This document shows, in pieces, positions 57,946-62,216 of a stretch of DNA of 64,000 nt. The stretch lies in assembly GCF_003790525.1 (NCBI RefSeq), contig NZ_CP033635.1. One strand, 5' to 3'. Under the pieces are notes generated by a model. It was given only the letters and a program-made list of their open reading frames with translations. It was not told where the DNA came from and searched no databases. Positions within the stretch are counted from its first letter, which is position 1. Each line of letters starts with the position of its first letter. The DNA comes from Escherichia coli (GTDB lineage Bacteria; Pseudomonadota; Gammaproteobacteria; Enterobacterales; Enterobacteriaceae). A program made the position numbers and the translations under genes.

Positions 57946-58080
57946 CCCCACCAACGTAACTGCATTCGCCTCTGGATGCAGTTTTCGTCCGATTTGTAAG
58001 CAAAAAACATCAAATATGAACGCAATGTAAATAAATGTATTTCTTTTTCGCGCAATGGGTGATAGAAAATCGCGCCAAGT

Positions 58081-58105
58081 GATAATGCTTATCAAAATTA
58101 TTATC
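58081..58105. promoter_or_regulatory. Fur box in the fiu promoter region
   Basis: GATAATGCTTATCAAAATTATTATC, strong match to the Fur consensus, ~100 nt upstream of fiu. Confidence 0.7.
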
Positions 58106-58209
58106 ACTTGCACGAACGCTATCACGAGATTAACAATGGCATCGCATCCGCAGAGATGCTTTCTCGTGGCAGTGAAAATTTCAACATATAAGAAAAAGTC
58201 ACCTGCAAA

Positions 58210-60492
58210 ATGGAAAACAATCGCAATTTCCCTGCCAGACAATTTCATTCGCTCACGTTCTTTGCCGGTCTTTGTATTGGCATCACGCCTGTGGCTCAGG
58301 CTCTCGCCGCCGAAGGGCAAATTAACGCGGATGACACGCTGGTTGTCGAAGCATCAACGCCTTCGCTTTATGCGCCACAACAATCTGCCGATCCGAAATT
58401 CTCGCGTCCGGTAGCGGATACTACCCGCACGATGACGGTGATTTCTGAACAAGTGATTAAAGATCAGGGTGCAACCAACCTTACCGACGCGCTCAAAAAC
58501 GTCCCCGGCGTGGGTGCGTTTTTTGCGGGTGAGAACGGTAACTCCACCACTGGCGACGCCATTTATATGCGTGGTGCCGATACCTCTAACAGTATTTATA
58601 TTGATGGCATTCGCGATATCGGCAGCGTCTCGCGCGACACCTTCAATACCGAGCAGGTCGAAGTGATTAAAGGGCCGTCCGGCACCGACTACGGGCGCAG
58701 CGCACCGACGGGCTCGATCAATATGATCAGCAAGCAGCCGCGCAATGATTCGGGCATTGACGCCTCCGCGAGTATTGGCAGCGCCTGGTTCCGCCGCGGC
58801 ACGCTGGACGTCAATCAGGTCATTGGTGATACCACCGCGGTGCGCCTGAATGTAATGGGCGAAAAAACGCACGATGCCGGACGCGACAAAGTCAAAAATG
58901 AGCGTTACGGCGTCGCCCCTTCTGTCGCTTTTGGCCTTGGTACAGCGAATCGTTTGTATCTTAATTATCTGCATGTCACCCAGCACAACACGCCAGACGG
59001 TGGCATTCCGACTATCGGTTTACCGGGCTATTCTGCCCCATCTGCGGGAACAGCGGCCCTGAATCATTCCGGAAAAGTTGATACGCATAACTTTTACGGC
59101 ACGGATTCCGATTACGACGATTCGACCACCGACACCGCTACCATGCGTTTTGAGCACGACATCAACGATAACACCACCATTCGCAATACTACCCGTTGGT
59201 CGCGCGTGAAGCAGGATTACCTGATGACGGCGATTATGGGTGGGGCGTCGAATATTACCCAGCCCACCAGCGATGTGAATAGCTGGACGTGGTCACGCAC
59301 GGCGAATACCAAAGATGTGAGTAACAAAATTCTCACCAACCAGACCAACCTGACCTCGACGTTCTATACCGGCGCTATCGGTCATGATGTCAGTACCGGC
59401 GTGGAATTTACCCGTGAAACGCAGACTAACTATGGCGTTAATCCGGTGACGTTACCGGCGGTAAATATTTATCATCCTGACAGCAGCATTCATCCCGGCG
59501 GCCTGACGCGCAACGGCGCAAACGCCAATGGTCAGACGGATACCTTCGCAATTTACGCCTTCGATACGCTGCAAATCACCCGTGATTTTGAGCTGAACGG
59601 CGGGATCCGTCTGGATAATTATCATACTGAATATGACAGTGCCACCGCCTGCGGCGGCAGCGGACGCGGTGCCATCACCTGCCCAGCTGGTGTGGCAAAA
59701 GGTTCTCCGGTCACCACCGTCGACACCGCCAGGTCGGGCAATCTGGTGAACTGGAAAGCCGGGGCGCTGTATCACCTGACGGAAAACGGCAATGTCTATA
59801 TTAACTATGCCGTTTCCCAGCAGCCTCCGGGCGGCAACAACTTCGCCCTTGCGCAGTCTGGCAGCGGTAACAGTGCCAACCGCACCGATTTTAAACCGCA
59901 AAAAGCCAACACCAGCGAGATTGGCACCAAATGGCAGGTTCTGGATAAACGCCTGTTGCTCACCGCCGCGCTGTTCCGTACTGATATCGAAAATGAAGTT
60001 GAGCAAAATGATGACGGAACTTACTCGCAATACGGTAAGAAACGCGTCGAAGGCTATGAGATATCCGGGGCCGGGAATATCACCCCCGCGTGGCAGGTGA
60101 TTGGCGGCTATACCCAGCAAAAAGCAACCATCAAAAACGGCAAAGATGTTGCCCAAGATGGTTCCTCATCGCTGCCCTATACGCCGGAGCACGCCTTTAC
60201 CTTATGGAGCCAATATCAGGCAACCGATGATATTTCCGTTGGTGCGGGCGCACGGTATATCGGCAGTATGCATAAAGGTTCTGACGGCGCGGTGGGAACG
60301 CCAGCGTTTACCGAAGGTTATTGGGTCGCCGACGCTAAACTGGGGTATCGGGTTAATCGCAATCTCGACTTCCAGCTAAACGTCTACAACCTGTTTGATA
60401 CCGATTACGTCGCCTCAATCAACAAGAGCGGCTACCGTTATCACCCGGGCGAGCCAAGAACCTTCTTGCTCACGGCCAATATGCATTTCTGA
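58210..60492 (+). CDS. fiu: TonB-dependent catecholate siderophore receptor Fiu
   Basis: 760-aa ORF with signal peptide, plug and barrel, C-terminal ...TANMHF. Confidence 0.95.
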
Positions 60493-60499
60493 TTCAGAT

Positions 60500-60523
60500 G
60501 TGGGGCGCAGGCCCCACTTTTTG
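60500..60523 (+). terminator. hairpin plus T-run between fiu and ybiX (possible terminator or attenuator)
   Basis: gtggggc-gcag-gccccac followed by TTTTTGG, 8 nt after the fiu stop and 10 nt before the ybiX ATG. Confidence 0.5.
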
Positions 60524-60533
60524 GAGAACTTGT

Positions 60534-61211
60534 ATGATGTACCACATTCCCGGCGTGCTATCGCCACAGGACGTCGCCCGGTTTCGCGAACAACTGGAAC
60601 AAGCCGAATGGGTGGATGGACGCGTCACCACCGGCGCACAAGGTGCGCAAGTTAAGAACAATCAACAGGTAGACACCCGCAGCACGTTATACGCCGCCCT
60701 GCAAAATGAGGTGCTGAACGCGGTTAATCAACATGCTTTATTCTTTGCCGCGGCCTTGCCGCGTACCCTTTCCACGCCGCTGTTTAATCGCTATCAGAAC
60801 AATGAAACCTATGGTTTCCATGTGGATGGCGCAGTACGCAGCCATCCACAAAACGGCTGGATGCGCACTGACCTTTCTGCCACGCTGTTTTTAAGCGATC
60901 CAGAAAGCTACGACGGCGGCGAACTGGTCGTTAATGACACCTTCGGGCAACATCGGGTAAAACTCCCGGCAGGCGATCTGGTGTTGTATCCCTCCAGCAG
61001 CCTGCATTGCGTGACACCCGTAACCCGCGGCGTGCGAGTGGCATCATTTATGTGGATCCAGTCGATGATCCGCGATGATAAAAAGCGCGCCATGCTGTTT
61101 GAACTGGACAACAATATTCAGTCGCTGAAAAGCCACTACGGCGAAAGTGAAGAGATCCTGTCGCTGCTCAATCTTTATCATAATCTGCTGCGGGAATGGT
61201 CGGAGATCTGA
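60534..61211 (+). CDS. ybiX: PKHD-type Fe(II)/2-oxoglutarate hydroxylase YbiX
   Basis: ORF trimmed to [10 protein letters not shown] start; 225 aa. Confidence 0.88.
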
Positions 61212-61284: not shown

Positions 61285-61551
61285 ATGGCATCCGGTTGGG
61301 CTAACGATGACGCCGTCAACGAACAGATCAACAGTACAATTGAAGATGCGATTGCTCGTGCCCGGGGTGAAATTCCGCGTGGCGAGAGCCTGTATGAATG
61401 TGAAGAGTGCGGCGCCCCCATCCCGCAGGCCCGTCGGGAAGCCATTCCTGGCGTGCGCTTATGCATTCATTGTCAGCAGGATAAAGATTTACAAAAATCA
61501 GCTTATACAGGATATAATCGCAGAGGTTCGAAAGACAGCCAGTTACGTTAA
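61285..61551 (+). CDS. ybiI: DksA/TraR-family C4-type zinc-finger protein YbiI
   Basis: 88-aa ORF with CEEC...CIHC zinc finger. Confidence 0.88.
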   Translation: MASGWANDDAVNEQINSTIEDAIARARGEIPRGESLYECEECGAPIPQARREAIPGVRLCIHCQQDKDLQKSAYTGYNRRGSKDSQLR

Positions 61552-61815: not shown

Positions 61816-62076
61816 ATGAAAACTATCAATACTGTTGTTGCTGCTATGGCTCTTTCAACTCTGTCATTTGGCGTGTTCGCGGCGGAACCGGTAACGACAT
61901 CCCAGGCACAGAACATGAATAAAATCGGCGTGGTTTCTGCCGATGGCGCATCCACCCTCGATGCCCTGGAAGCGAAACTGGCTGAGAAAGCCGCGGCGGC
62001 CGGTGCCAGTGGATACAGCATCACTTCTGCCACCAACAACAATAAATTAAGCGGTACTGCGGTAATTTATAAGTAA
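61816..62076 (+). CDS. ybiJ: DUF1471-family periplasmic protein YbiJ
   Basis: 86-aa ORF, paralog of mcbA (signal peptide, ...GTAVIYK). Confidence 0.88.
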   Translation: MKTINTVVAAMALSTLSFGVFAAEPVTTSQAQNMNKIGVVSADGASTLDALEAKLAEKAAAAGASGYSITSATNNNKLSGTAVIYK

Positions 62077-62187
62077 TTCGTATGCTAGATCAGGCGTTTA
62101 CGCTACATTCAGCACAAGTATTTCCCTGTCTGTTTGCCGACAGACGCATATGCTCTAACCCTCATTGATCCTATGTTACCCTTGTTT

Positions 62188-62214
62188 GCCCGTCCGCCAC
62201 TGGACGGGCTTTTT

Positions 62215-62216
<2 letters not shown>
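62188..62216 (+). terminator. intrinsic terminator downstream of ybiJ (overlaps ybiC stop codon)
   Basis: gcccgtcc-gccactg-ggacgggc hairpin followed by TTTTTTT. Confidence 0.65.

Follow-up and report, generated by a model that had tools for sequence, protein, structure and literature searches.

A hairpin and short U-tract between fiu and ybiX: a probable leaky terminator inside a Fur-repressed transcription unit of Escherichia coli

In Escherichia coli the gene for the siderophore receptor Fiu is followed on the same strand by ybiX, and the short gap between them holds a GC-rich hairpin and a run of T residues. A structure of this kind, inside what is generally treated as one transcription unit, raises the question of whether transcripts from fiu end there, run on into ybiX, or do both, and what the hairpin contributes to either message. 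In the window, by which we mean the whole 64,000-nucleotide stretch of E. coli DNA analysed, the gap is 41 bp long (60493–60533), as the first-pass annotation had stated; the T-run, which it placed 10 nt before the ybiX start, lies where it was said to lie, at a distance of 11 nt, a trivial difference. Its treatment of fiu and ybiX as one unit agrees with the 'fiu-ybiX' of Beauchene 2015 and disagrees with the RegulonDB operons in Yan 2018 (PMC6131387), which list fiu, ybiX, ybiI and ybiJ separately. All three of fiu, ybiX and ybiI belong to the Fur-1 iModulon. The 451 bp spanning the hairpin show 100% identity to E. coli SMS-3-5 (NC_010498.1), and the features of the locus are these:

58077..58077, plus strand: equivalent of the K-12 fiu transcription start (Yan 2018 supplementary TSS, K-12 841664(-))
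58210..60492, plus strand: fiu coding sequence, catecholate siderophore outer-membrane receptor (open reading frame list, SMS-3-5 RefSeq annotation)
60490–60492, plus strand: fiu stop codon, TGA
60500..60517, plus strand: terminator hairpin (probable), 5' arm GTGGGGC, loop GCAG, 3' arm GCCCCAC
60518..60522, plus strand: T-run TTTTT (U5 in RNA), 60522 being the mapped K-12 RNA 3' end
60523..60528, plus strand: ybiX Shine-Dalgarno region GGAGAA, read from the sequence and directly abutting the T-run
60534..61211, plus strand: ybiX coding sequence, PKHD-type Fe(II)/2-oxoglutarate hydroxylase (RefSeq annotation, ATG at 60534)
61285..61551, plus strand: ybiI coding sequence, third gene of the read-through transcript (annotation, operon variant b0805-b0804-b0803)
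61816–62076, plus strand: ybiJ coding sequence (RefSeq annotation)
62188..62216, plus strand: strong terminator after ybiJ (terminator scan; 9-bp stem, 7 G-C pairs, T7)

In K-12 MG1655 the same arrangement lies on the minus strand (fiu 839249–841531, ybiX 838530–839207). The two regions align without indels from the fiu promoter through ybiJ, and over this interval the K-12 position is therefore 899741 minus the window position; the published value of 841664 for the fiu start may be 0-based, and hence possibly off by 1 nt. From the fiu stop codon onwards the order is TGA, ttcagat, GTGGGGC, GCAG, GCCCCAC, TTTTT, GGAGAA, cttgt, ATGATG, and the fiu 3' UTR amounts to only 30 nt.

The hairpin, which starts 7 nt past the fiu stop codon, has a stem of 7 bp, six of them G-C pairs, and a 4-nt loop; a consensus scan flagged it as terminator-like. 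Its fold of −14.4 kcal/mol compares with −6.3 ± 2.2 for dinucleotide shuffles (z = −3.74, none of 200 as stable), and the fold of the whole gap, −19.3, with −9.9 ± 2.4 (z = −3.84, 0 of 200). The scan is permissive, returning 10 sites in 5 kb where 5.9 ± 2.5 are expected. A scan hit alone is thus not rare, and the case is built on stability, position, conservation and mapped RNA 3' ends. Both sequence elements that define an intrinsic terminator are present: a GC-rich stem-loop of the appropriate size (stem of about 5–14 bp, loop of 3–8 nt) and a U-tract directly 3' of the stem, TTTTT at 60518–60522. The tract is short because the GGAG of the ybiX ribosome-binding site comes next; Adams 2021 (PMC7815308) cites a terminator example with 8 U, by comparison with which U5 is modest.

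Three other readings of the same nucleotides were rejected. Membership of the REP or any other repeat family is excluded by the single copy of the hairpin in the window, where a covariance model gave one strong match in 64 kb, and in E. coli genomes, where the median is one place per genome; it is also unlike the REPs that adjoin it in strain NC101. A function on the minus strand was discarded because the reverse sequence, though it folds equally well (−14.6 kcal/mol), places A5 ahead of the stem with no T-run behind, and because G.T wobbles found in orthologous stems would become A.C mismatches there. Finally, ybiX could in principle start at an in-frame ATG at 60498 (open reading frame 60498–61211, adding 12 codons and overlapping the start of the hairpin); we rejected this start because the gaps of Citrobacter, Klebsiella and Kluyvera lack it and the RefSeq start is 60534.

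The K-12 sequence is identical to the window through the hairpin, T-run and GGAGAA, and the K-12 site is already recorded in two genome-wide transcript-end maps, in neither of which has it been discussed individually. The Term-seq data of Adams 2021 (Supplementary file 1) list a 'primary' fiu 3' end, meaning one no more than 50 bp downstream of an annotated gene, at 839219(-), with an average count of 43048. This position converts to 60522, the last T of the run, and the flanking sequence given by the authors puts the end at the junction of ...GGGGCGCAGGCCCCACTTTTT and GGAGAAATTG. It is listed for M63-glucose only and is absent from the two LB sheets, which presumably reflects a Fur-repressed gene derepressed in minimal medium. 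In the second map, full-length primary transcripts were sequenced by SMRT-Cappable-seq (Yan 2018), and Supplementary Data 1 of that work assigns to the transcription start at 841664 a termination site (TTS) at 839218, labelled 'novelTTS', with fiu as the sole fully covered gene. In vivo 3' ends thus fall at the end of the U-tract, and the uniform read-through lacking such ends, which would have contradicted the suggestion of a partial terminator in the first-pass annotation, is not what the published K-12 data contain; both Term-seq and SMRT-Cappable-seq ends bear that suggestion out.

The same long reads show that most transcripts made in M9 do not stop here (Yan 2018):

M9 medium: TSS reads 7627; ending at the TTS 1178; passing it 4821; ending ≤50 bp downstream 89; median read-through 864.5 nt
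Rich medium: TSS reads 143; ending at the TTS 47; passing it 3; ending ≤50 bp downstream 59; median read-through 809 nt

Among M9 transcripts that reach the fiu TTS, 19%, or about one in five, stop and 79% continue (4821/6088). The corresponding read-through in rich medium is 3/109 (3%), a figure from a small sample and a repressed promoter that is confounded with expression level. Supplementary Data 2 of Yan 2018 gives three operon variants from one transcription start, namely fiu, fiu-ybiX-ybiI and fiu-ybiX-ybiI-ybiJ (b0805-b0804-b0803-b0802), and among these variants neither ybiX nor ybiI has a start of its own. That transcripts do enter ybiX is seen also by Term-seq, which maps an M63 3' end within the gene (838863(-), count 25339; window 60878, 344 nt from the ybiX start; Adams 2021). 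This internal end, preceded by an imperfect long hairpin and ACCUUUC whose fold is unexceptional (z = −1.8), may mark RNA processing or a weak stop inside the gene. A further M63 Term-seq end lies 77 nt into the fiu coding sequence (K-12 841454(-), window 58287, count 27317), in the signal-peptide region, and may arise by premature termination or processing. There is no fiu or ybiX entry in the Rho table of Adams 2021, which covers LB only; our literature searches returned no in vitro termination assay or Rho-inhibition result for the fiu-ybiX site, and nothing on the fiu 3' end, as a possible source of an Hfq-binding small RNA, from a search for fiu with RIL-seq or Hfq.

We conclude, with a probability of about 0.8, that the hairpin and U5 form a weak terminator of the Rho-independent kind where fiu ends, within the Fur-repressed fiu-ybiX-ybiI(-ybiJ) unit. 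Polymerase arriving from the fiu promoter would transcribe the hairpin and U5, and a minority, ~20% in M9, would be released there to leave a monocistronic fiu mRNA capped by a stable 3' hairpin; the majority would read through and supply the only detected mRNA for ybiX and ybiI. The terminator would in this way decide how much of the Fur-controlled fiu transcript reaches ybiX and ybiI. The earlier idea that the hairpin sets the fiu:ybiX expression ratio accordingly survives in part: some effect is expected, only a modest one from ~20% termination in M9 alone. Stabilisation of mRNA by a 3' hairpin is standard for terminator hairpins, and here too the structure would be expected to protect fiu mRNA from 3' exonucleases, while read-through transcripts trimmed back to it may swell the fiu-only pool. 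Given such a pool and such protection, steady-state fiu mRNA may exceed ybiX mRNA by more than 20% termination would bring about.

Conservation of the element was followed within E. coli and beyond. A 36-nt segment comprising hairpin, T5 and Shine-Dalgarno region is present in 5086 of 5426 complete E. coli genomes and at least 99% identical in 5065. A YbiX scan with one genome per species gave 80 loci, nearly all with a Fiu-like transporter gene directly upstream. The Enterobacterales contribute 30 distinct gap sequences of 40–63 nt (from Escherichia, Citrobacter, Leclercia, Silvania, Kluyvera, Klebsiella, Raoultella, Pantoea, Rouxiella, Serratia and Tatumella), and each folds at the corresponding place into a hairpin of −11 to −19 kcal/mol. 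Pairing was scored in a structure-anchored table made by script, because MAFFT gaps at the ends and inside the G-run put the arms out of register; the covariance-model alignment was set aside since minus-strand palindromic matches were mixed into it. When stems are anchored at the base, 98.8% of stem cells form standard pairs across 24 distinct stems. Compensatory changes are evident at pair 2, which is T-A, C-G or G-C, and at pair 7, which is C-G or T-A, and the three Tatumella species have wholly different stems at the same site. Seven G.T wobbles pair only in plus-strand RNA, and the loops are GNRA or UNCG tetraloops in 15 of the 30 orthologues. Pairing, compensation, strand-specific wobbles and loop types together indicate that selection maintains the structure in the RNA copied from this strand, the transcribed one. 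Position is also kept: the stem begins 5–10 nt past the stop codon in 27 of 30 orthologues, and a simple motif search finds a purine-rich GGAG-like motif 4–10 nt after it in most of them. Outside the Enterobacterales, 22 of 32 sampled transporter-dioxygenase pairs have gaps of 6–56 nt without a hairpin. The intercistronic terminator is therefore a feature of the lineage and not part of what defines the pair.

The T-run is conserved chiefly in its proximal part. T occupies tail positions 1–4 in 21–28 of the 30 orthologues and positions 1–3 in 24–28; at least three T occur within the first four tail nucleotides in 25 of 30, and the distal tract is cut off by the ribosome-binding site. Weak tracts occur as TCTCA and TTGCA in Citrobacter and as CCTCC in one Leclercia. 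These observations bear on the alternative that survives best, which we nevertheless regard as quite unlikely: that the hairpin acts solely as a barrier to 3' exonucleases or a stop for processing, with ends generated by trimming of cleaved fiu-ybiX transcripts back to the stem and no release of polymerase. Neither Term-seq nor SMRT-Cappable-seq separates true termination from trimming back to a stable hairpin, and Adams 2021 ascribes many 3' ends to processing. The hairpin is kept more strictly than the distal T-run, as the CCTCC that follows the Leclercia stem illustrates; a REP-like palindrome without a T-run takes its place in Pseudocitrobacter, and a BIME is present in the same gap in ~10% of E. 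coli. An exonuclease barrier needs no T-run, however, and the T residues at positions 1–3 are kept; moreover, the mapped 3' end coincides exactly with the last U, where intrinsic termination is expected to leave it. Because the proximal U residues are conserved, release appears to be part of the function, although trimming and termination are not mutually exclusive, and, given the poor U-tracts of some orthologues and the Pseudocitrobacter palindrome, the hairpin may matter more than release.

In Pseudocitrobacter the long REP-like palindrome lies directly before the ribosome-binding site and the folded gap reaches −27 to −34 kcal/mol; it looks as if the terminator hairpin has been swapped for a stabiliser-type element. 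REP and BIME sequences are known as intercistronic mRNA stabilisers, as between malE and malF, where a stem-loop stops 3' trimming. The fiu hairpin resembles them in that a stable stem-loop placed between two genes of one transcript can shield the upstream message and tilt expression in favour of its gene. It differs in being single-copy, in bearing no likeness to the REP consensus and in having a T-run.

A regulated attenuator, in which iron or growth condition switches read-through by way of a competing RNA fold, a ligand or some factor, is very unlikely in our judgement. It draws its appeal from the contrast between 79% read-through in M9 and 3% in rich medium, where 59 reads end within 50 bp downstream, and from the condition-dependent read-through that Yan 2018 describes at other sites. 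The rich sample, however, is the 109 reads from a repressed promoter described above. The gap matches no Rfam family; no upstream segment of 5 nt or more is complementary to either arm; the sole predicted alternative pairing involves a sequence 90 nt upstream, within the translated part of fiu, and is less stable by 9.7 kcal/mol; and the stem follows the stop codon at a distance of only 7 nt. Rfam, the complement search and the folds thus reveal no mutually exclusive antiterminator, leader peptide or aptamer of the sort that marks an attenuator or riboswitch. We therefore rejected an attenuator in the regulated sense, 'attenuator' being a term that the first-pass annotation had also offered; the M9-versus-rich difference is left unexplained by this.

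It is highly improbable that the hairpin serves mainly ybiX translation, by hiding the ribosome-binding site until a ribosome on fiu opens it or by aiding re-initiation through stop-start proximity: the minimum-energy fold of the gap does pair the post-stop UUCAGA with UUUGGA, covering part of the ribosome-binding site, similar outer helices occur in many orthologues, the stem ends 4–10 nt before the purine-rich motif in most, and BIME-bearing strains keep the ybiX-adjacent copy intact while the fiu-adjacent copy has decayed, but the mean unpaired probability of the ribosome-binding site is 0.49 against 0.46 when the 5' flank is shuffled (Wilcoxon p = 0.48, 32 orthologues), so that predicted accessibility is no lower than in shuffled controls, the outer helix is absent from the BIME form, in which AAAAA precedes the stem, an intact ybiX-proximal copy fits equally well a terminator closing the 3' UTR, and the conserved T-run and mapped 3' end would go unexplained, and on these grounds occlusion by the 5' flank was rejected.

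If the element is a leaky terminator, two features of the gap may account for its leakiness. One is the short U-tract, truncated by the ybiX ribosome-binding site; low-read-through sites have a better-defined poly-U (Yan 2018). The other is the proximity of the stem to the fiu stop codon, 7 nt away, so that a closely following, terminating ribosome would sit over the base of the stem and keep it from folding. With the usual ribosome footprint, a ribosome at the fiu stop would reach about three nucleotides into the 5' arm, the very ones whose base pairs adjoin the U-tract. A precedent is the phage terminator tR2, which is almost fully repressed when placed a few base pairs after a stop codon and reaches maximal activity beyond ~30 bp, an effect attributed to the trailing ribosome (Li et al. 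2015, PMC4824070). The fiu hairpin likewise begins a few nucleotides after a stop codon; the tR2 effect, unlike that proposed for fiu, was measured directly, in reporter plasmids. By analogy with this different terminator, ribosome occlusion plausibly operates at fiu.

The gap exists in a second form, which separates the stop codon from the stem. At least 556 of the 5426 E. coli genomes (~10%), among them NC101 and ATCC 25922, carry 174 extra bp in the fiu-ybiX gap, and a similar insert occurs in Escherichia whittamii and one further Escherichia species. The 174 bp hold two inverted REPs, a BIME, and the insertion point is equivalent to a position within 60500–60517. A decayed copy of the hairpin, GTGGGGCGCAAGGCTCAC, without a T-run, lies towards fiu, and the copy next to ybiX is intact, with its T5 and the ribosome-binding site; the stem of this intact copy begins, in NC101, 181 nt past the fiu stop codon. 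Loss of the sequence from one copy to the other could have produced the short form, or an insertion that duplicated 18 nt the long one. If ribosome occlusion matters, strains with the BIME should terminate more efficiently. In E. coli BH100 an IS1397 lies inside the second REP of the BIME, and ybhJ instead of ybiX is found beyond fiu, so that ybiX no longer adjoins fiu. This position fits the preference of IS1397 for REP sequences that has been reported.

Since the stem begins 7 nt past the stop codon, read-through might depend on the trailing ribosome. A more specific version, which we consider unlikely as a whole, is that read-through is set by the spacing between ribosome and polymerase at the end of fiu together with the rate of promoter firing, and that the BIME variant removes the ribosome effect, strengthens termination and lowers YbiX. 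Were this true, ybiX output would rise more steeply than that of fiu on iron starvation, as a change from ~3% read-through in rich medium to 79% in M9 would imply.

Among characterized sites, the leaky intra-operon terminators of prs-dauA and dapA-bamC (Yan 2018) are closest to the leaky terminator proposed here. In these, too, a GC-rich hairpin and U-tract lie past a stop codon inside a multi-gene unit, and some transcripts end there while the rest extend downstream, giving rise to operon variants. The fiu site differs in being unusually near both its neighbours, with 7 nt between stop codon and stem and a U-tract that touches the ybiX ribosome-binding site, and in its high M9 read-through of ~79%. 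It is a routine member of a widespread class, the leaky terminators from which operon variants arise, and opens no new question. To the published maps the present analysis adds the covariation across genera, the finding that the stem stays constantly close to the stop codon, grounds for rejecting three rival mechanisms, and the BIME variant.

The gene pair itself has relatives in piuA-piuC and in Caulobacter cciT-cciO, which, like fiu-ybiX, are Fur-regulated, co-conserved pairs of a TonB-dependent transporter and an Fe(II)/2-oxoglutarate dioxygenase; in Caulobacter the homologous transporter cannot function without its dioxygenase partner. In E. coli with KPC-variant plasmids, removal of both cirA and ybiX raises the cefiderocol MIC above 32 mg/L, and an ISKpn8 insertion in the fiu-ybiX gap has been found in a cefiderocol-resistant mutant, where the authors read it as separating ybiX from its promoter, in keeping with a dependence of ybiX on transcription from upstream. 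Because loss of ybiX and cirA raises the MIC, because an insertion in this very gap arose in a resistant mutant and because the Caulobacter dioxygenase is required, sequence changes in the gap, the BIME included, could tune uptake of catechol siderophores and cefiderocol.

Some further observations concern the two ends of the unit. Just downstream of the fiu start equivalent at 58077, Fur-box-like repeats, GTGATAATGCTTATCAAAATTATTATCAC, can be seen by eye at 58080–58108; they exceed three mismatches, and a search with the 19-bp Fur-box consensus allowing up to three returned no match. At the far end, the terminator at 62188–62216 is probably where the longest variant, fiu-ybiX-ybiI-ybiJ, stops. 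The ybiJ-hcxB gap (62077–62216) has a weak Rfam match to anti-hemB, 18.9 bits against a gathering score of 49.5 (E = 0.59), which is probably due to chance, and closes with this strong terminator (62188–62209, then T7). The stem at 62188–62209 is identical to the one that closes the 3' end of the K-12 region annotated with the ZbiJ sRNA, and K-12 carries, just after ybiJ, ~93 extra nucleotides with two REPs that are absent from the SMS-3-5-type sequence of the window.
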